Positions 1 through 39,491 of a stretch of DNA of 39,491 nt are shown piece after piece. This DNA is from a virus. The first letter of the stretch is position 1; each line of letters begins with the position of its first letter. The stretch lies in UHGV virus genome UHGV-0344222; one strand, 5' to 3'. The notes beneath the pieces are model-generated. The model saw only the letters and a program-made list of their open reading frames with translations, made no database searches and was not told where the DNA came from. A program made the translations under genes and the position numbers.

Positions 1-148
1 AACTTCAAGTTTCGTGGAATTGACCAAGTCTATAACGCACTGGCTCCGGCGCTGGTTAATCACGGACTTCTTATCCTCCCCCGCATCACTGAGCGCACCG
101 TAACCGAGCGCACGACCCCAAAAGGCACTGTCCTGTTCTAGGTGGTGG
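1..148. repeat. Inverted duplicate of an internal segment of the ERF-like gene; reverse complement of about 324-473 with one mismatch
   Basis: Plus strand 1-143 translates to NFKFRGIDQVYNALAPALVNHGLLILPRITERTVTERTTPKGTVLF then TAG, the same peptide encoded on the minus strand at 324-473; the mismatch turns a Tyr codon into TAG. Repeat is cut by the window edge. Confidence 0.85.
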
Positions 149-566
149 TTACATCAATCGCTGTTTCTTCTGTCGGGATGCAGAACGCCTGAAACGCTGC
201 GTATTTGTAGGCAATCGACATGGCCTTGTTCGTTGCCTTGTCGCCGCTATCCATCGCTTCGCCGTATGTCACAACCGTGTGAACGCTGCCGTCCTTTGTG
301 CTCACAAAGTCGAACTCTGCTTTAACCACCACATAGAACAGGACAGTGCCTTTTGGGGTCGTGCGCTCGGTTACGGTGCGCTCAGTGATGCGGGGGAGGA
401 TAAGAAGTCCGTGATTAACCAGCGCCGGAGCCAGTGCGTTATAGACTTGGTCAATTCCACGAAACTTGAAGTTTTGCTGTGTGTTCGTCCTGTCCTTGCT
501 TATGCCGGTAGTCGCCATTTCCTTGGCTACTGCGCTGATTGCCTGATAAACAAGCTTATCTGTCAT
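138..566 (-). CDS. ERF-family single-strand annealing (recombination) protein, putative
   Basis: Motifs resemble P22 Erf as I recall it (NFKFRGID...; ...AYKYAAFQAFCI). ATG at 566 overlaps the upstream stop (ATGA); the longest ORF extends to a GTG at 593. Confidence 0.55.
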   Translation of the reverse strand: MTDKLVYQAISAVAKEMATTGISKDRTNTQQNFKFRGIDQVYNALAPALVNHGLLILPRITERTVTERTTPKGTVLFYVVVKAEFDFVSTKDGSVHTVVTYGEAMDSGDKATNKAMSIAYKYAAFQAFCIPTEETAIDVTTT

Positions 567-706
567 GAGTAATTCCCCGCGAACTCTTGCCACGTGATTG
601 GCTGATTCATTCGTTCAGCCGCTAGGTTAATTTGCTGCTCTACCTCTTCTTCAATTTCAGGAGAAATGAGAGCGATGAAATCGTCGTCTTCTAATTCATG
701 CAGCAT
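563..706 (-). CDS. Small strongly acidic hypothetical protein (47 aa from internal ATG; longest ORF 563-817)
   Basis: ORF track 563..817; plausible start MLHELEDDD...; stop overlaps the ERF-like start. No strong SD seen. Confidence 0.3.
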   Translation of the reverse strand: MLHELEDDDFIALISPEIEEEVEQQINLAAERMNQPITWQEFAGNYS

Positions 707-884
707 GTTTTTTGTTCCAGTCGTCGTCCTGAATATCATTCCATCCCATCGCGATTTCCCACGCCCATTCATAGGCTGAGTGGCGTCCTTCATCCGTATC
801 CGGGAATGCAGCTTCATAGAGCTTGTTGAACTCGCGGTTACCTTGTTGAACCAGAATGGTTCCGTTAACTGGCAAAATAGTCAT
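696..884 (-). CDS. Hypothetical early-left operon protein (62 aa)
   Basis: ORF track 696..1001 begins with TTG; in-frame ATG at 884 with GGAG about 11 nt upstream gives MTILPVNGT... Confidence 0.35.
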   Translation of the reverse strand: MTILPVNGTILVQQGNREFNKLYEAAFPDTDEGRHSAYEWAWEIAMGWNDIQDDDWNKKHAA

Positions 885-1085
885 AACGCGGCACTCCGGG
901 TTGAGAGAGGATGTCGGCCAGCTTTTTCCAGCCAGTGCGTAACTTGCGTGTGATGCGATCGAGAAGTGATTCAGAGCAGCCCACAACAGGCCACCCTGCA
1001 AAAGCGAACTGTTGCATGGTGTTATCCTTGGTTAATTGGCATAGCGAAAAGGCCGCGCTAATAAGCAGCCTTGTTGATATGCAGG

Positions 1086-1110
1086 CGAAAAAAAGCCCTC
1101 CGTAGAGGGC
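1086..1110 (-). terminator. Rho-independent terminator candidate in the early-left operon
   Basis: GCCCTC-CGTA-GAGGGC hairpin (1095-1110) followed on the minus strand by a 7-T run (plus-strand A-run 1088-1094). Confidence 0.55.
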
Positions 1111-1223
1111 GAACAGACAACAAGGGTTATTTCTCCATTTAACCAGAACAGGTCTTCGTCTCCTGTCTTGGTTATGATGCGGATTGCATCAGATAACCGA
1201 CTCTATGAATCGGCTATCGGCTG

Positions 1224-1469
1224 CTATTCAGCACTTTCAGCGAAGTCCTCGATTAGCTCATCCAGGCAATCGTCAGTCATGGCATCCATTCCCTGTGCTC
1301 GCTGCATGACTTCAATCGCATCGTCTGGTGAGAGGTCAACTGCAACCAGAAACTCAGCAACGGCAAGCTTTGCAACGTAATATTCATTCTCCTGCATGCA
1401 CTGGCTGAACACTGCGCTTACTGCACTTGTTAACCTGATCATCAGGTCATTGTTATCGCAACCTTCCAT
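1224..1469 (-). CDS. Strongly acidic 81-aa hypothetical protein
   Basis: ORF MEGCDNND...DDCLDELIEDFAESAE; 19 Asp/Glu versus 3 Arg/Lys by my count; ATG immediately follows the upstream stop. Confidence 0.5.
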   Translation of the reverse strand: MEGCDNNDLMIRLTSAVSAVFSQCMQENEYYVAKLAVAEFLVAVDLSPDDAIEVMQRAQGMDAMTDDCLDELIEDFAESAE

Positions 1470-1631
1470 TCACTCCTCCTCGCCGATGGCTTTAGCTTGC
1501 GAGCATTCATCATCAATGTCATAAATGTCGTGATAGCATTCGTGGCACAGCTCTTCATTGCCATCGCCACTGTAAACGGCAACCGCAGCAACCCCTTTGC
1601 CGCATACGTCGCATTCGACTTCCTCATCCAT
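1470..1631 (-). CDS. 53-aa CxxC...CxxC zinc-ribbon-like small protein (below the ORF-track cutoff)
   Basis: Manual translation of the minus strand: MDEEVECDVCGKGVAAVAVYSGDGNEELCHECYHDIYDIDDECSQAKAIGEEE; stop directly abuts the next ATG. Confidence 0.4.
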   Translation of the reverse strand: MDEEVECDVCGKGVAAVAVYSGDGNEELCHECYHDIYDIDDECSQAKAIGEEE

Positions 1632-1673
1632 ATCTCATCTCAGATAAGTGGCTTGCCCAAAAAGAAAGGCCGA

Positions 1674-1868
1674 CTATGCGGCCTTTAGTTTTTCCAGTTC
1701 TCTTTCAATCATTGCGGTGGTTCTTATTGCCCATTTATCGACATATTTCCCATCCTCCATTACAAGAAACATTTCATCAGGCTTAATCATGCATTCCGAT
1801 TGAAGCTGGCATCCATTGCATCGTTTGAATTGTCCACACCATTGATTTTTATCAATAGTCGTAGTCAT
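1674..1868 (-). CDS. ral: Ral restriction-alleviation protein
   Basis: MTTTIDKNQWCGQFKRCNGC... matches lambda Ral as I recall it; position between N/sieB and the early-left genes. Confidence 0.85.
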   Translation of the reverse strand: MTTTIDKNQWCGQFKRCNGCQLQSECMIKPDEMFLVMEDGKYVDKWAIRTTAMIERELEKLKAA

Positions 1869-2062
1869 ACGGATAGTCCTGGTACTGTTCCATTACATCC
1901 TGCGGATGCTCTTCGAACTCTTCAAATTCTTCTTCCATATATCACCTTAAATAGTGGATTGCGGTAGTAAAGATTGTGCCTGTCTTTTAACCACATCAGG
2001 CTCGGTGGTTCTCGTGTACCCCTACAGCGAGAAATCGGATAAACTATTACAACCCCTACAGT

Positions 2063-3375: not shown

Positions 3376-4137
3376 TTAGGAATCAAGGTCAGGTAGCATG
3401 ATTTTCTCAATCAACGTCAATGCCCTTTGGTCTCGTTCAGCAAAATATTTAGGAGCGTACTGAGGCAGCCACACTTCGTTGAAGTGTTGTTTGAAATCTG
3501 CAAGATATTCGTTTGGGTATAGACGTACCGGGAATGTCCGGCCATCTGGGTACTCATGGTTATATGTTGGGAATGTCTTCGGCTCAACCCCCCGGTTGTC
3601 ACGGAGCCATTGCGAGAAAACCCTACCCTCTGAAATATCAGGGACCATTTTTTCTGGCAGCGTATATCCGGCCTGTTCAAGTGGCGCAACCAAGTTAAAC
3701 GTCAGTTCATTAAGCATAGAAAAGTGCGTATGAGGAACTCTGCCTCGGTTTGTCATATACCGCTTAAGGTGGATAGGGAGTTCGGCAGGCGCTCTTTCAC
3801 CTGACATCCACTCACGCACCCATCTCGATACTTGCACTGCAAATTTTGGAGATAGCCACTGAGCTAAATTAATTGCGATGTCTGGATGAACCCAAGTCCC
3901 TTGATTCTCTGCTCTTCCGCCTTTAAATGATTGAATTAACTCCGATATGGGAATCCCCATATCGCGTGATAATTCATCAAAAAAATCTTGTGTTGTTTTT
4001 AGTCGTGTATAGTCAGCAAGTAGCTTCCCCGCAGACTTGCACATCGCGGTGGCATTGATGTATCCGTCTTTGGTGCGAAGATGGATGACTTCTCCATCAA
4101 CTTCTCTAGCGATTAATGCAAGTTGAAACTGTGTCAT
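3376..4137 (-). CDS. KilA-N domain protein at the rexAB-equivalent locus (BstA-like abortive-infection candidate)
   Basis: 253 aa; N-terminal KilA-N-type motifs (DGYINAT..., GTWVHPDIAINLAQWLSPKFAVQVSRWV); starts 31 bp after the cI stop, same strand, ends at the t-imm-like terminator. Confidence 0.75.
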   Translation of the reverse strand: MTQFQLALIAREVDGEVIHLRTKDGYINATAMCKSAGKLLADYTRLKTTQDFFDELSRDMGIPISELIQSFKGGRAENQGTWVHPDIAINLAQWLSPKFAVQVSRWVREWMSGERAPAELPIHLKRYMTNRGRVPHTHFSMLNELTFNLVAPLEQAGYTLPEKMVPDISEGRVFSQWLRDNRGVEPKTFPTYNHEYPDGRTFPVRLYPNEYLADFKQHFNEVWLPQYAPKYFAERDQRALTLIEKIMLPDLDS

Positions 4138-10430: not shown

Positions 10431-11513
10431 TTAGAACTGGTAAACCATACCTACAGCAACGATATCATCGGTAGCAACGCCAGATGCTTTCGTGAAATCG
10501 CTCTTATCAATCAGGTTGATTTTGTAGTCAACAAAAGTGGACATATTTTTGTTGAAGTAATAGGTTGCACCTACATCAACATATTCAACCAGGTCCTGAT
10601 CACCCCAAACACCCAAGTCTTTTCCTTTAGAATGCAGGTAAGCAACGGATGGACGCAGGCCGAAGTCGAACTGATATTGTGCAACAGCTTCGAAGTTTTG
10701 TGCTTTGTTGGCAATATGGTTATTACCAAAAACAGTCATGTTCTGGGTTTCAGAATAGGTGGTGGCCAGATAGATGTTGTTCGCATCATATTTCAGACCA
10801 GCTGCCCATACTTCAGCATTTTGACCAGAAGCATTCAGACCGTTGTTACCGTAGATAACCTGATTATTAGTGCGATCAGATTTAGCATAGGTTGCACCCA
10901 CGCCGAATCCTTCATACTCATAAGTAGTTGAGAAACCGAAACCATCGCCATTAGCTTCAGTTACTTCATTTCGGTCATTTTTGCCCTGATACTGAGCTGC
11001 AAAGTTCAGGCCATCAACCAGACCAAAGAAGTCGTTGTTACGATAAGTTGCAACACCTGTGGTGCGACCAGTCATGAATACATCTGTTTGGGTCCAGGTA
11101 TCGCCACCGAATTCTGGCAGAACGTCAGTCCACGCACCGATGTCGTATGCTACACCGTAGTTACGGCCGTAATCGATTGAGCCGTAGTCACCGAATTTCA
11201 GGCCTGCAAATGCAAGACGGGTTTTGTCTTTGGAGGAACCTTGAGATTCAGCGCGGTTGCCTTTGAATTCATATTCCCACTGACCGAAACCAGTCAGTTG
11301 ATCGTTGATTTGGGTTTCACCTTTGAAGCCAAGACGGGCATAAGTAGTATCACCATCATCTGCATCATTAGAGGAGAAGTAGTGCTTAGCATTAACTTTC
11401 CCGTACAGATCCAGCTTGTTACTGTCTTTATTATAAATTTCAGCTGCCTGAGCAGACATCGCCATCAGTACTGATGCAGCTACAGCAGAAATTGCCACTG
11501 TTAATTTTTTCAT
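10431..11513 (-). CDS. nmpC: Outer-membrane porin (OmpC/NmpC family), apparently intact
   Basis: 360 aa with signal peptide [23 protein letters not shown] and C-terminal ...MVYQF. Confidence 0.92.
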
Positions 11514-30725: not shown

Positions 30726-33700
30726 ATGGGTAAAGGCAGCAGTAAAGGGCATACCCCGCGCGAAGCGAAGGACAACCTGAAGTCCACGCAGCTGCTGAGT
30801 GTGATCGATGCCATCAGCGAAGGGCCGGTTGAAGGTCCGGTGGATGGATTAAAAAGCGTGCTGCTGAACAGTACGCCGGTGCTGGACAGTGAGGGGAATA
30901 CCAATATATCCGGCGTCACGGTGGTGTTCCGGGCCGGTGAGCAGGAGCAGACACCGCCGGAGGGATTTGAATCCTCCGGCTCCGAGACGGTGCTCGGTAC
31001 AGAAGTGAAATATGACACGCCGATCACCCGGACCATCACGTCGGCAAACATTGACCGTCTGCGTTTTACTTTCGGCGTGCAGGCACTGGTGGAAACCACC
31101 TCAAAGGGGGACAGGAATCCATCGGAAGTCCGCCTGCTGGTTCAGATACAACGTAACGGTGGCTGGGTGACGGAAAAAGACATCACCATTAAGGGCAAAA
31201 CCACCTCGCAGTATCTGGCCTCGGTGGTGGTGGGTAACCTGCCGCCGCGCCCGTTCAATATCCGGATGCGCAGGATGACGCCGGACAGCACCACAGACCA
31301 GCTGCAGAACAAAACGCTCTGGTCGTCATACACCGAAATCATCGATGTGAAACAGTGCTACCCGAACACGGCACTGGTCGGCGTGCAGGTGGATTCGGAG
31401 CAGTTCGGCAGCCAGCAGGTGAGCCGTAATTATCATCTGCGCGGGCGCATTCTGCAGGTGCCGTCGAACTATAACCCGCAGACGCGGCAATACAGCGGTA
31501 TCTGGGACGGAACGTTTAAGCCAGCATACAGCAACAACATGGCCTGGTGTCTGTGGGATATGCTGACCCATCCGCGCTACGGCATGGGGAAACGTCTTGG
31601 TGCGGCGGATGTGGACAAATGGGCGCTGTATGTCATCGGCCAGCATTGCGATCAGTCGGTGCCGGACGGTTTTGGCGGCACGGAGCCGCGCATCACCTGT
31701 AATGCGTACCTGACCACACAGCGCAAGGCGTGGGATGTGCTCAGTGATTTCTGCTCTGCGATGCGCTGTATGCCGGTATGGAACGGGCAGACGCTGACGT
31801 TCGTGCAGGACCGACCGTCGGATAAGGTGTGGACCTATAACCGCAGTAATGTGGTGATGCCGGATGATGGTGCGCCGTTCCGCTACAGCTTCAGCGCCCT
31901 GAAGGACCGCCATAATGCCGTTGAGGTGAACTGGATTGACCCGAATAACGGCTGGGAGACGGCGACAGAGCTTGTGGAGGACACGCAGGCCATTGCCCGT
32001 TACGGTCGTAACGTCACGAAGATGGATGCTTTTGGCTGTACCAGCCGGGGGCAGGCACACCGCGCCGGGCTGTGGCTGATTAAAACAGAACTGCTGGAAA
32101 CGCAGACCGTGGACTTCAGCGTGGGTGCCGAAGGGCTTCGCCATGTACCGGGCGATGTCATTGAAATCTGCGATGATGACTATGCCGGTATCCGCACCGG
32201 CGGGCGCGTGCTGGCGGTAAACAGCCAGACCCGGACGCTGACGCTCGACCGTGAAATCACGCTGCCATCTTCCGGCACCACGCTGATAAGCCTGGTTGAC
32301 GGGCAGGGGAGTCCGGTCAGCGTGGAGGTTCAGTCCGTCACCGACGGCGTGAAGGTGAAAGTGAGCCGTGTTCCTGACGGCGTTGCTGAATACAGCGTAT
32401 GGGGGCTGAAGCTGCCGACGTTGCGCCAGCGCCTGTTCCGCTGCGTGAGTATCCGTGAGAACGACGACGGCACGTATGCCATCACCGCCGTGCAGCATGT
32501 ACCGGAAAAAGAGGCCATCGTGGATAACGGGGCGCACTTTGACGGCGACCAGAGCGGCACGGTAAATGGTGTCACGCCGCCAGCGGTGCAGCACCTGACC
32601 GCAGAAGTCACCGCAGACAGCGGGGAATACCAGGTGCTGGCCCGCTGGGACACGCCGAAGGTGGTGAAGGGCGTGAGCTTCCTGCTTCGCCTGACCGTGG
32701 CAGCGGATGACGGCCGTGAGCGGCTGGTCAGCACGGCCCGGACGACGGAAACCACTTACCGCTTCACACAACTGGCTCTGGGGAACTACAGGCTGACAGT
32801 CCGGGCAGTAAATGCGTGGGGGCAGCAGGGCGATCCGGCGTCGGTATCGTTCCGGATTGCCGCACCGGCAGCGCCGTCGCGGATTGAGCTGACGCCGGGC
32901 TATTTTCAGATAACCGCCACGCCGCATCTTGCGGTTTATGACCCGACGGTACAGTTTGAGTTCTGGTTCTCGGAAAAACGGATTGCGGATATCAGGCAGG
33001 TTGAAACCAGCGCGCGTTATCTTGGTACGGCACTGTACTGGATAGCCGCCAGTATCAATATCAAACCGGGCCATGATTATTATTTTTACGTTCGCAGTGT
33101 GAACACCGTTGGCAAATCGGCATTCGTGGAGGCTGTCGGTCAGCCGAGTGATGATGCATCAGGCTATCTGGATTTTTTCAAAGGCGAGATAGGGAAAACC
33201 CATCTGGCTCAGGAGCTGTGGACGCAGATTGATAACGGTCAGCTTGCGCCTGACCTGGCTGAAATCAGGACGTCCATTACGGATGTCAGCAATGAAATCA
33301 CACAGACCGTCAATAAGAAACTGGAAGACCAGAGTGCAGCGATCCAGCAGATACAGAAGGTTCAGGTTGATACAAATAATAATCTGAACAGCATGTGGGC
33401 TGTGAAGCTGCAACAGATGAAGGACGGACGCCTTTATATTGCGGGTATCGGTGCCGGTATTGAGAATACGCCAGCAGGAATGCAGAGTCAGGTGCTGCTG
33501 GCGGCAGACAGGATTGCGATGATTAATCCTGCGAATGGCAACACAAAACCGATGTTTGTTGGTCAGGGTGATCAGATATTCATGAATGAAGTGTTCCTGA
33601 AGCGCCTGACGGCCCCCACCATTACCAGCGGCGGCAATCCTCCGGCCTTTTCCCTGACACCGGACGGAAAGCTGACCGCTAAAAATGCGGATATCAGTGG

Positions 33701-34208
33701 CAGTGTGAATGCGAACTCCGGGACGCTCAACAACGTCACGATTAATGAGAACTGTCAGATTAAGGGGAAACTGTCAGCCAATCAGATTGAAGGCGATATT
33801 GTCAAAACGGTCAGCAAGTCTTTCCCCCGCACGAGCACTTATGCCAGTGGCACCATCACGGTAAGAATCAGTGATGATCAGAAATTTGACCGGCAGGTCA
33901 TGATACCGCCAGTGTTATTCCGCGGTGGTAAGCATGAGAATTTCAACAGTAATAACCAACAGTCATACTGGTATTCAACCTGCCGGTTAAGAGTGACCCG
34001 CAATGGTCAGGAGATTTTTAATCAGTCCACGACGGATGCTCAGGGCGTATTTTCCTCCGTTATAGATATGCCTGCCGGACAGGGGACGCTGACACTGACA
34101 TTCACCGTATCTTCATCAGGAGCGAATAACTGGACACCAACAACCAGTATCAGCGATCTGCTGGTTGTGGTGATGAAAAAATCCACAGCAGGTATCAGTA
34201 TCAGCTGA
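30726..34208 (+). CDS. J: Central tail fiber / host-specificity protein J (1160 aa) with divergent C-terminal receptor-binding region
   Basis: N-terminal about 980 aa lambda J-like; C-terminal about 170 aa differ from what I recall of lambda J. Confidence 0.93.
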
Positions 34209-34274
34209 ATTTTATAACCCAGAACGGGCGTCAGAAATGACGCCTTTTTTATTGCAGAAAAGCGAGAGGTAATT

Positions 34275-34874
34275 ATGCGTAAACTTTATGCCGCCATTTT
34301 GTCCGCAGCCATCTGTCTGGCCGTATCCGGTGCGCCTGCATGGGCGTCTGAACATCAGTCCACGCTGAGCGCGGGCTATCTTCATGCCTCGACGAACGTT
34401 TCCGGCAGCGATGATCTGAACGGGATTAACGTGAAATACCGTTATGAGTTTACGGACACGCTGGGAATGGTGACGTCATTCAGCTATGCAGGAGACAAGA
34501 ATCGCCAGCTTACCCGTTACAGCGATACCCGCTGGCATGAAGATTCCGTGCGTAACCGCTGGTTCAGCGTAATGGCGGGGCCGTCTGTGCGCGTGAATGA
34601 ATGGTTCAGCGCGTATGCGATGGCGGGTGTGGCTTACAGCCGTGTGTCGACTTTCTCCGGGGATTATCTCCGCGTAATTGACAACAAGGGGAAAACGCAC
34701 GACGTGCTGACCGGAAGTGATGACGGTCGCCACAGCAACACGTCTCTGGCGTGGGGAGCTGGCGTGCAGTTTAACCCGACCGAATCCGTGGCCATTGATA
34801 TTGCTTATGAAGGCTCCGGCAGTGGTGACTGGCGCACTGACGGTTTCATCGTGGGTGTCGGTTATAAATTCTGA
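34275..34874 (+). CDS. lom: Lom outer-membrane protein (Ail/OmpX family)
   Basis: 199 aa with signal peptide [24 protein letters not shown] and ...[11 protein letters not shown]-terminus. Confidence 0.9.
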
Positions 34875-34932
34875 TTAGCCAGGTAACACAGTGTTATGAC
34901 AGCCCGCCGGTTCAGGCGGGCTTTTTTGTGGG

Positions 34933-37900
34933 GTGAATATGGCAGTAAAGATTTCAGGTGTACTGAAAGACGGCACAGGAAAACCGGTACAGAACTGCAC
35001 AATCCAGCTGAAAGCAAAACGTAACAGTACCACTGTGGTGGTGAACACGCTGGCCTCAGAAAATCCGGATGAAGCCGGGCGTTACAGCATGGACGTTGAG
35101 TACGGTCAGTACAGCGTTATTCTGTTGGTGGAAGGATTCCCGCCGTCACATGCCGGGACCATCACCGTGTATGAAGATTCTCAACCCGGTACGCTGAATG
35201 ATTTTCTCGGTGCCATGACGGAGGATGATGCCCGTCCGGAGGCACTGCGTCGTTTTGAACTGATGGTGGAAGAGGTGGCGCGTAACGCGTCCGTGGTGGC
35301 ACAGAACACGGCAGCCGCAAAGAAGTCAGCCAGTGATGCCAGCACATCTGCCAGTGAGGCGGCAACCCGTGCGACTGATGCTGCAGATTCAGCACGTGCA
35401 GCCAGCACGTCAGCCGGACAGGCCGCGTCGTCGGCTCAGTCAGCGTCTTCCAGCGCAGGAACGGCATCAACAAAGGCCACTGAAGCCTCAAAAAGTGCTG
35501 CCGCTGCAGAGTCCTCAAAAAGCGCGGCGGCTACCAGTGCCGGTGCGGCGAAAACGTCAGAAACGAATGCGGCAGTGTCAGAACAATCAGCCGCCACTTC
35601 TGCATCCACCGCGACCACGAAAGCGTCAGAAGCTGCCACCTCAGCCAGGGATGCGTCGGCTTCAAAAGAGGCGGCAAAATCATCAGAAACGAACGCATCA
35701 TCAAGCGCCAGTAGTGCAGCTTCCTCGGCAACGGCGGCAGGAAATTCCGCGAAGGCGGCAAAGACGTCTGAGACAAACGCCAGGTCCTCTGAAACGGCAG
35801 CAGCACAGAGTGCCTCCGCAGCAGCAGGCTCAAAAACAGCGGCTGTGTCGTCGGCCAGTGCCGCGTCAACAAGTGCCGGGCAGGCCTCAGCCAGTGCCAC
35901 CGCCGCCGGAAAATCGGCAGAAAGCGCCGCGTCGTCCGCTTCAACAGCCACAACGAAGGCTGGCGAAGCCACTGAACAGGCCAGCGCAGCAGCGAGGTCT
36001 GCTTCCGCAGCGAAGACATCCGAAACGAACGCGAAAGCGTCGGAAACCAACGCAGAATCCTCAAAAACGGCTGCCGCATCGTCCGCCAGTTCGGCGGCGT
36101 CATCGGCATCATCGGCGTCTGCTTCAAAAGATGAGGCGACCAGACAGGCGTCAGCAGCGAGGGGCAGCGCCACGACGGCATCCACGAAGGCGACAGAGGC
36201 TGCTGGCAGTGCGGCAGCGGCAGCACAGAGCAAAAGTACGGCAGAATCCGCAGCAACGCGCGCTGAGACAGCGGCAAAACGGGCAGAGGATATTGCATCC
36301 GCCGTGGCGCTTGAGGATGCGAGCACGACGAAAAAGGGGATAGTACAGCTCAGCAGTGCGACTAACAGCACGTCTGAAACGCTGGCGGCAACGCCAAAGG
36401 CAGTAAAAGCAGCCTATGACAATGCAGAGAAACGTCTGCAGAAAGACCAGAACGGTGCTGATATTCCCGACAAGGACCGCTTCCTGAGTAACATTAATGT
36501 TTACAGCAAAGGTGAAGTGGATCAGAAAAAGGGGATGCGATACGTTGTGGTAAATGCCCCGGCGGGTGTCCAGGAAGGTAAATATTATCCGTTAGTGATA
36601 AAAAGGAATGACAGCCATCGGGCATCCCGCGTTGTCATTTCAACGCCAAGTCGCTTAGCTAATCACAGAATGAATAATTGTGAGTTTAATGGTTTTGTTT
36701 GCGCAGGCGGCTGGACGGACCGGGGTAGCTATGCCTGTGGTATGTTCTGGGCTTATTCATCATCGGAACGCGCTATTCATTCCATTCTGATGAGTAATAA
36801 AGGCGATACCGTAGACAGCGTATTCTATATAGAAGGTGGGGCATTTCCCGTAGAGGTCTTTTTAGAAGAAGGTCTCTCCGTTACTGCACCTGCTTCTGAT
36901 TATATTGTTGCTGAAACGACTTATAAATTTGGCGCAACTGATCCTTATTCTGAATCAGTTGCGGTAAATTTAATTTTAGATTTTAAACAAGGTAATGGAT
37001 TTTATAGTTCGTATCCTGTTTTGAGTAAGTCAGACATTAGCGGGAATAAGATTTACGCTAATGATGAAGTTATTGTCCGTAGTCAGAACGCGTTAAGGAT
37101 GATTGCAGGTGATTACGGTGTCATATGGCGAAATGATGGAGCAAATACTTACTTGCTCATGACTGATAAAGGCGACCAGTACGGTGGCTGGAACGGTCTT
37201 CGACCATTTGCAGTAAATAACGCAACAGGTGAAGTGACGATCAATACACCACTTAATTCTCCTAAGGGGATTAAGGGAAATTCTGATACAGCTACGAAAC
37301 TTCAGACAGCAATAAAAATATCTGGTGTTTCGTTTGATGGTTCTACTGATATCACTTTAACCGCTGCGCATGTTGCTGCTTTTGCCAGAAGAGCAACGGA
37401 TACGTATGCCGATGCGGATGGGGGCGTTCCCTGGAATGCCGAATCAGGCGCTTACAATGTCACTCGCTCTGGCGACAGCTATATTCTGGTTAACTTCTAT
37501 ACCGGAGTCGGAAGTTGCCGGACCTTGCAGATGAAGGCGCATTACAGAAATGGTGGTCTGTTCTACCGTTCTTCAAGAGACGGTTATGGTTTTGAGGAAG
37601 ACTGGGCAGAAGTTTATACCTCGAAAAATCTTCCACCAGAAAGCTACCCAGTCGGCGCACCAATCCCGTGGCCATCAGATACCGTTCCGTCTGGTTATGC
37701 CCTGATGCAGGGGCAGACTTTTGACAAATCTGCTTACCCGAAACTTGCAGCTGCTTATCCGTCAGGCGTGATCCCTGATATGCGTGGCTGGATGATTAAG
37801 GGCAAGCCCGCCAGTGATCGAGCCGTATTGTCTCAGGAACAGGACGGCATTAAATCACACACCCACAGCGCCAGCGTATCCAGTACGGATTTGGGGACGA

Positions 37901-38286
37901 AAACCACATCGTCGTTTGATTACGGCACTAAATCCACGAATAACACTGGTGCGCATACCCATAGTGTTAGCGGTACGGCTGCTTCAGCCGGTGCACATAC
38001 CCATTCGATGACATTTGTTTCAGGTGGTTCCAGTGGTGCTCCGGGAAGTGGAGCATCTGATTATTCTAAATACAGTGTTAACACTTCTTCTGCAGGCGCT
38101 CATACGCACTCTGTATCGGGTACTGCTGCAAGCGCAGGTGCACACGCGCATACTGTCGGTATTGGTGCTCATACGCACTCCGTTGCGATTGGCTCACATG
38201 GACACACCATCACCGTTAACGCTGCTGGTAACGCGGAAAACACCGTCAAAAATATCGCATTTAACTATATTGTGAGGCTTGCATAA
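34933..38286 (+). CDS. stf: Side tail fiber protein Stf (1117 aa) with long Ala/Ser-rich repeat region and His-rich C-terminal repeats
   Basis: N-terminus [26 protein letters not shown]... lambda Stf-like; repeats SAxxAxxSASSA... and [17 protein letters not shown] (twice). Confidence 0.92.
35300..36300 (+). repeat. Intragenic low-complexity tandem repeats (Ala/Ser/Thr-rich) within stf
   Basis: Reiterated GCx-AGC/TCx codon blocks; explains the long spurious ORFs on other frames and the antisense strand. Confidence 0.7.
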
Positions 38287-38861
38287 TGGCATTCAGAATG
38301 AGTGAACAAGCACGGACCATAAAAATTTATAATCTGCTGGCCGGAACTAATGAATTTATTGGTAAAGGTGACGCATATATTCCGCCTCATACAGGTCTGC
38401 CAGCAAACAGTACCGATATTGCACCGCCAGATATTCCGGCTGGCTTTGTGGCTGTTTTCAACAGTGATGAGGCATCGTGGCATCTCGTTGAAGATCATCG
38501 GGGAAAAACCGTCTATGACGTGGCTTCCGGCGACGCGTTATTTATTTCTGAACTTGGCTCGTTACCGGAAAATGTCACCTGGTTATCGCCGGAAGGGGAA
38601 TATCAGAAGTGGAACGGCACAGCCTGGGTGAAGGATACGGAAGCAGAAAAACTGTTCCGGATCCGGGAGGCGGAAGAAACAAAAAACAGCCTGATGCAGG
38701 TAGCCAGTGAGCATATAGCGCCACTTCAGGATGCTGTAGATCTGGAAATTGCAACGGAGGAAGAAATCTCGTTGCTGGAAGCATGGAAAAAGTATCGGGT
38801 ATTGCTGAACCGTGTTGATACGTCAACTTCACAGGATATTGAATGGCCAGCACTGCCGTAG
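38286..38861 (+). CDS. tfa: Tail fiber assembly protein Tfa
   Basis: 191 aa [48 protein letters not shown]... Confidence 0.93.
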
Positions 38862-38958
38862 GGTAAAACATATAAATTCTATAATTAGATGTATCTTTCC
38901 ATTTACGGCAAGGAAGGGGGCTTGGAAGACGTAAAGCATCTCACACCGAGATTATTTT

Positions 38959-39216
38959 TTATATGTCAGGTGTCTGAAGTTTTGCTTTGGCTCTTAAAAT
39001 GGTTTGCCGCGAGGTTTTGAATTCCCGGGCAATGGCACTTATACTTACACCTGACTTAATTCGTTCGAATACCACCTGTTTCTGTTCTTCATTTAACACA
39101 GGTGGTCGACCAAAACGTTTCCCTGCGCCGCGGGCTCTTACTATCCCGGAATGAGTGCGTTCAAGTAAAAGGTCTCGTTCAAATTCAGCGACTGCTGAAA
39201 TTACTTGCATCATCAT
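38959..39216 (-). pseudogene. 3' fragment of a serine DNA-invertase gene (Pin/Gin/Hin family, C-terminal HTH domain only)
   Basis: [47 protein letters not shown]...; lacks the N-terminal catalytic domain; 5' end replaced by an inverted repeat. Confidence 0.75.
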
Positions 39217-39244
39217 TTTTCCTGTTGGACTGGTCAGGTCAATG
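39145..39244. repeat. Left arm of a 100-bp inverted repeat; right arm 39391-39491 is truncated by the window edge
   Basis: 39145-39244 is the exact reverse complement of 39391-39490 by manual comparison; both arms encode the invertase segment [26 protein letters not shown]. Confidence 0.85.
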
Positions 39245-39491
39245 CACCGGTTGCTTGCTCGCCTGAAATGTGGTGATCAATTGATTGTGACAAAACTGGA
39301 TCGCCTTGGTTGTAATGCAATGGATATCAGGAAAACAGTGGAACAACTGACCGAAACAGGTATCAGAGTGCATTGCTTAGCATTGGGGGGCATTGACCTG
39401 ACCAGTCCAACAGGAAAAATGATGATGCAAGTAATTTCAGCAGTCGCTGAATTTGAACGAGACCTTTTACTTGAACGCACTCATTCCGGGA
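39242..39491 (+). CDS. Partial serine DNA-invertase gene: central catalytic-domain region, 5'-truncated, 3' end beyond the window
   Basis: [83 protein letters not shown]; resolvase-type motif without the catalytic Ser region. Confidence 0.6.

Follow-up and report, generated by a model that had tools for sequence, protein, structure and literature searches.

Both ends of the virus contig UHGV-0344222, which was analysed over its full length of 39,491 nucleotides (hereafter the window), are most probably technical fold-back (inverted-duplication) chimeras and not a biological feature. Comparisons with related sequences suggest a probability of about 0.88 for this reading. At the right end, the window passes through the tail-fibre genes stf and tfa into the DNA-invertase gene pin and then turns back on itself within pin. 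An equivalent turn-back is found at the left end within an unrelated recombinase gene. The features of both ends are collected in Table 1.

Table 1. Coordinates of the two terminal fold-backs and of the neighbouring tail-fibre genes in the window.
Feature	Position	Strand	Evidence
Outer arm, left fold-back (ERF sense nt 94-244)	1..151	+	Starts on first window base; one mismatch, base 141
Native 5' part of ERF gene (nt 1-415 of 624), holding the loop (152-322) and inner arm (323-473)	152..566	-	ERF protein and DNA matches
stf side tail-fibre gene, 1115 aa from ATG	34939..38286	+	ORF list; exact protein on 14 public contigs
tfa tail-fibre assembly gene, 191 aa	38286..38861	+	ORF list; Pfam Caudo_TAP on the identical L025 gene
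Native 3' part of pin (residues 102-196: Resolvase end and HTH_7)	38959..39245	-	100% identical to L025
Inner arm, right fold-back (pin nt 406-305, native orientation)	39144..39245		Repeat comparison
Right-end chimeric junction, blunt	39245..39246		32-mer across junction absent from three public collections
Loop, pin nt 161-304, native sequence inverted relative to the rest of the contig	39246..39389	+	L025 comparison
Outer arm, right fold-back (pin nt 305-406 forward)	39390..39491	+	Ends on last window base

The right end and the native pin locus

Base-by-base comparison of the right end identifies a perfect 102-nt inverted repeat, the arms of which (39144-39245 and 39390-39491) are separated by a spacer of 144 nt. 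An automated repeat search places the arms at 39144-39248 and 39387-39491 (105 nt, 99%). The last base of the window is also the end of the outer arm. The chance expectation for a perfect 102-nt inverted match within approximately 350 nt is roughly 350 x 4^-102, which is effectively zero; the repeat is truly present in the sequence and chance cannot produce it. A prior examination of this DNA from its letters and open reading frames (the sequence-only reading) had reported a perfect 100-bp inverted repeat with a 146-bp spacer. The repeat itself is upheld, while the sizes have to be corrected, as they were one base short at each arm end (102 and 144).

The anatomy of the right end was determined by alignment to the intact pin of phage mEp460_ev081 (591 nt, 196 aa). 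Nucleotides 305-591 of pin are present in reverse complement at window 38959-39245, and nt 161-406 follow in the forward orientation at 39246-39491. The junction links pin nt 161 to nt 305 of the other strand, a distance of 144 nt. There is no microhomology on either side of this junction (39245/39246), which is blunt, and the two breakpoints in pin (160/161 and 304/305) show no similarity to each other.

The minus-strand ORF at 38959-39216 encodes 85 aa, with homology that extends to 39245. This piece matches positions 103-144 of the Pfam Resolvase profile (PF00239) and also contains HTH_7 (PF02796, E = 1.3e-11). The plus-strand piece (39248-39490) matches Resolvase profile positions 54-135. 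Based on these profile matches, neither piece in the window includes the first 53 residues with the catalytic serine region, so that the C-terminal HTH_7 domain is present and a complete Resolvase catalytic domain with its active-site serine is not. These results bear out the domain assignments of the sequence-only reading, in which the minus-strand ORF encodes the C-terminal HTH part only, the plus-strand ORF encodes the central catalytic region, and neither piece contains the N-terminal active-site segment. The implied presence of two invertase gene copies does not hold. When reverse-complemented, the last 246 nt of the window match exactly one continuous native stretch on both sides of the breakpoint of a single pin.

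The native arrangement of this locus is seen in L025 (ENA ERZ27269914 k141_120449), an independent metagenome contig of 69.6 kb that is one of the 14 public contigs with the exact Stf protein and is 100.000% identical to window 30939-39245 (8,307 nt, 0 mismatches). Past the breakpoint, L025 continues into an intact 196-aa pin, followed by ynaE, uspF, and ompN. The L025 pin contains both Resolvase (4-144, covering PF00239 profile positions 1-144) and HTH_7. Once reverse-complemented, the tail of the window (39246-39491) agrees with L025 8206-8451 at every position (246/246); this segment is made up of the 102 nt before the breakpoint and 144 nt of native sequence beyond it. A single intact pin with no inverted duplication had been named beforehand as the observation that would mark the repeat as an assembly artefact, and this is what L025 provides by proxy, being 100% identical over the preceding 8.3 kb. 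Judged from these alignments, the true locus is an ordinary stf-tfa-pin arrangement with one intact pin.

Genes of the pinQ/pinR type in lambdoid prophages (Qin, Rac; phages mEp460, 2H10, and Tritos) are 99.5-100% identical to window 38959-39245. Similar to the window, pin in these loci is convergent with tfa and lies 97 bp downstream of it. In contrast to the window, the pin of these records is always a single 591-nt ORF (196 aa), whereas the window lacks nt 1-160 of the gene and contains nt 161-406 in the wrong orientation.

The junctions were not recovered in any of the sequences searched. The pin sequence of the window is found in 2,837 of 5,426 complete E. coli genomes, where every match stops at the breakpoint and 0 matches cover the right junction. 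The same holds for 11 phage records with the same pin, in which all matches stop at the breakpoint and the right junction is uncovered. Searches of the IMG/VR, JGI metagenome, and GTDB genome collections find neither a 32-mer across the right junction nor a 30-mer across the left junction, while the control, a 32-mer spanning the pin breakpoint in its native form, is present in 102 viral contigs. The truncated ERF ORFs of 151 and 142 aa at the left end have no counterpart on record. Furthermore, 31 whole contigs with the same gene show a terminal fold-back at none of their 62 ends, and the right arm occurs in both orientations in 0 of 131 fetched loci. Three of the marks by which a fold-back artefact is recognized are found here, in that opposite strands are joined at short distance, the terminal arm is truncated, and the junctions are not reproduced in independent assemblies.

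The left end of the contig

A scan of the whole window for inverted repeats indicates that bases 1-151 are the reverse complement of 323-473, with a loop of 171 nt. This repeat is made up of 140 perfect bases, one mismatch at base 141, and 10 additional bases. The outer arm corresponds to ERF sense nt 94-244 and lies on the opposite strand to the native part, which covers nt 1-415 of a 624-nt gene for an ERF-family recombinase. Over 138 aa, the ERF piece of the window shows 100% identity to an ERF protein of Cronobacter sakazakii (207 aa). DNA matches to intact ERF loci (L026-L029 and L134) end exactly at window position 152, which is ERF nt 415. At this point ERF nt 415 is joined to nt 244 on the opposite strand, 171 nt apart. 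The junction (151/152) is blunt, with no microhomology.

The presence of an equivalent fold-back in an unrelated ERF gene at the other end points to an artefact. In addition, the arms end exactly on bases 1 and 39491, indicating that the window represents an entire contig, with the repeats as a property of its termini. The terminal repeat at the left end, as well as the position of the right outer arm on the last base of the window, are features beyond those described in the sequence-only reading.

The left part of the window also has a distinct affiliation. Window 152-1962 (ERF, Arf, cIII, and Ral) is 97-99% identical to Cronobacter-type prophages and is absent from the 5,426 E. coli genomes, and similarity to E. 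coli lambdoid sequences begins at window position 1657. The closest match on the left (L134, 99.3%) and the contig with 100% identity on the right (L025) are two separate contigs of one ENA sample, ERZ27269914. The window may thus combine two phages that meet in the ral region of approximately 300 nt, either as a natural mosaic or as a chimeric contig.

Origin of the fold-backs and alternative explanations

In the mechanism proposed for the two ends, native sequence would run outward to pin nt 161 on the right and to ERF nt 415 on the left. The assembly would then step back by 144 nt (right) or 171 nt (left) and proceed along the complementary strand, giving rise to an inverted repeat with an outer arm that is cut off by the contig end. 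The source may be fold-back molecules formed at DNA ends during library preparation or amplification. Alternatively, the assembler may have extended the contig ends with mis-oriented reads. The likely setting would be a dataset whose native coverage ended near both turn-back points.

Interrupted pin genes are also found in other assemblies. Contigs that start at pin codons MMMQV, with the 85-aa gene at 1-258 (+/- two bases), occur in several independent assemblies. Besides the window, the 85-aa pin fragment is on record only in assemblies that break or are frameshifted within pin. In the frameshifted form, pin appears as two ORFs (96-111 aa and 85 aa) beside ynaE, with ynaM also present in L003. 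The loci with a broken or split pin are L004, L005, L007, L008, L011, and L012. These observations are consistent with pin as a habitual, repeat-induced contig break point, which fits a multi-copy repeat at which contigs end. Since other assemblies break in pin without fold-backs, the fold-backs would be specific to the dataset from which the window was assembled.

Fold-back artefacts, in which a breakpoint joins both strands of one locus within 200 bp, have been described previously (Heinz, Meyerson & Li 2026, PMC12870357). Inverted chimeras account for more than 85% of the artefacts of MDA (Lasken & Stockwell 2007, PMC1855051), and more than 70% of MDA chimeras show 2-21 nt of priming homology (PMC1855051). 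Inverted chimeras are also the dominant artefact in ligation-based nanopore libraries, where they make up 0.18-7.33% of reads (Xie et al. 2026, PMC13141652), and they occur in sonication or enzymatic short-read libraries as well (PMC10908179). The window resembles known fold-back artefacts in its opposite-strand switch within 200 bp, the short intervening segment, the location at a sequence terminus, and the arbitrary position inside genes. It differs from them in that the fold-backs are seen in an assembled contig, not in single reads, and at both ends. In contrast to most MDA chimeras, the junctions of the window lack priming homology; the blunt junctions at both ends mildly disfavour classic MDA priming.

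The dimensions of the left end provide a hint as to how the contig was assembled. The left tail is 151 nt long, and the mismatch at base 141 leaves exactly 140 perfect bases, which is k-1 for k=141. A read length of 151 nt is common on Illumina instruments, and k=141 is the largest default k of MEGAHIT. Together with the closest relatives, which are named 'k141_' (MEGAHIT contigs), these numbers hint at short reads and a de Bruijn assembler, although this is suggestive only. The dimensions of the right end (102-nt arm, 246-nt tail) do not fit this k=141 and 151-nt reading.

Several specific routes to the fold-backs were considered and set aside. A hairpin loop in a single-k de Bruijn graph fits the left end with k=141, but the 102-nt arm on the right fits no standard k. 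The concatenation of mate reads as sequenced would match both the geometry and the blunt junctions, but it would require unequal read lengths at the two ends (151 and 246 nt) and the idea is speculative; we know of no pipeline that concatenates mates in the as-sequenced orientation. An 8-nt perfect palindrome, AACCGGTT, is located at the right turn-back point (pin nt 160-167, window 39246-39253). Self-priming at short natural inverted repeats is nonetheless disfavoured, as there is no microhomology at either junction and the turn-back is not centred on this palindrome, the proximity of which may be a coincidence.

One biological explanation is a real inverted duplication inside pin. Such a duplication could have been generated by replication template switching or by fold-back break repair, leaving two truncated, head-to-head copies of pin at which the assembler stopped. 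The assembled junction must have had some supporting sequence data, and pin is dispensable for a prophage. An inverted repeat of 102 bp with a 144-bp spacer is also tolerated in E. coli. This explanation is very unlikely. A duplication specific to the pin locus cannot explain an equivalent fold-back in an unrelated gene at the left end of the contig. Furthermore, an in vivo duplication does not agree with both outer arms ending at the contig termini, with the absence of the junction from every collection searched, or with the intact pin in the relative that is identical over 8.3 kb.

The matching geometry at both ends, which argues against a duplication confined to pin, would be expected if the sequence had been read around the hairpins of a linear molecule. 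Under this proposal, the contig would represent an actual linear DNA whose ends are snap-back or hairpin-like, for example a defective phage genome or a fragment whose ends were self-primed in the cell. The native span between the turn-back points is approximately 39.2 kb, which is capsid-sized, and the terminal fold-backs could in this case belong to a real linear phage DNA of that length, a defective, 'copy-back'-like lambdoid genome bounded within erf and pin. Both the general and the more specific form of this proposal are extremely unlikely. The loops (144 and 171 nt) are ordinary, non-palindromic coding sequence within pin and erf and are not telomere-like, in contrast to hairpin-telomere replicons of the N15 type, which possess a perfect palindromic telomere-resolution site that the ends of the window lack. 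The phage is lambda-like, with N, cI, and cro nearly identical to those of lambda and the structural genes ordered as in a prophage, and the packaged ends of a lambda-like phage would be at cos, well inside the contig. Nothing comparable to snap-back ends is found in any related locus.

The position of pin directly downstream of stf-tfa had led to the proposal of a tail-fibre inversion switch. The Gin, Cin, and Pin invertase genes adjoin tail-fibre genes in Mu, P1, and e14, and the window shares with these switches (the Mu G, P1 C, and e14 P segments) a serine invertase gene beside fibre and assembly genes. The palindrome beside the turn-back point could likewise be taken to favour a site-specific event. 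Pin would in this case have inverted either a host-range segment or a cryptic segment within pin itself, one orientation of which was caught in the assembly. Conservative serine recombination proceeds by strand exchange at a 2-bp core, however, and a duplication of 102 nt is impossible by this route; the breakpoints in pin are also dissimilar. With TTNTCNNAAACCNNGGTTTNNGANAA as the consensus for crossover sites of the gix/hix type (approximately 26 bp), the whole window contains 0 matches at <=3 mismatches. No inverted repeat of at least 14 nt flanks stf/tfa in the window, and there is one stf and one tfa, with no minus-strand fibre ORFs between tfa and pin and no inverted alternative cassette. 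The lack of crossover sites, the lack of repeats flanking stf/tfa, and the single stf-tfa set together indicate that there is no host-range inversion switch. Unlike the Mu G, P1 C, and e14 P systems, the window has neither a bounded invertible segment nor an alternative fibre cassette, and its inverted repeat lies inside the invertase coding sequence, part of which it duplicates. Given the duplication and the missing crossover sites in the window, recombination by Pin is rejected as the source of the junction, and the inversion reading as a whole can be dismissed almost outright.

Implications and further features of the window

The main value of the artefact reading lies in quality control. 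Annotation of the right end as an inversion switch, or as a pin locus that has been rearranged or duplicated, should be avoided, and trimming is advised at both termini (bases 1-151 and 39246-39491). Collections of viral contigs can be screened for similar cases by searching for contigs whose first or last 20-25 bases recur as the reverse complement within a few hundred bases. If the repeat were true biology, it would be an odd inverted duplication that destroys a non-essential gene, and as such would be of modest interest.

Additional features were observed elsewhere in the window. The 3' part of stf (window 37948-38183) contains five copies of a 20-nt unit (GGTGCNCATACNCA...), which encode His-rich fibre-tip repeats of the GAHTHS type. 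Window 3376-4137 (minus strand) encodes a 253-aa protein with KilA-N and BstA_C domains, a BstA-type abortive-infection gene located between the lambda-like cI and N; in lambda, rexAB are carried between these two genes. An identical copy of this protein is found in 2,229 blocks of a public assembly collection. Among the ten matches listed for this gene, nine adjoin the same 237-aa cI and one adjoins a gene for a 232-aa repressor. Between the replication/nin region and the lysis genes, the window contains a 360-aa ORF (10431-11513, minus strand). By analogy with the related locus L015, in which Q and the holin gene flank a Porin_1 gene, the 360-aa ORF is possibly a phage-borne porin.
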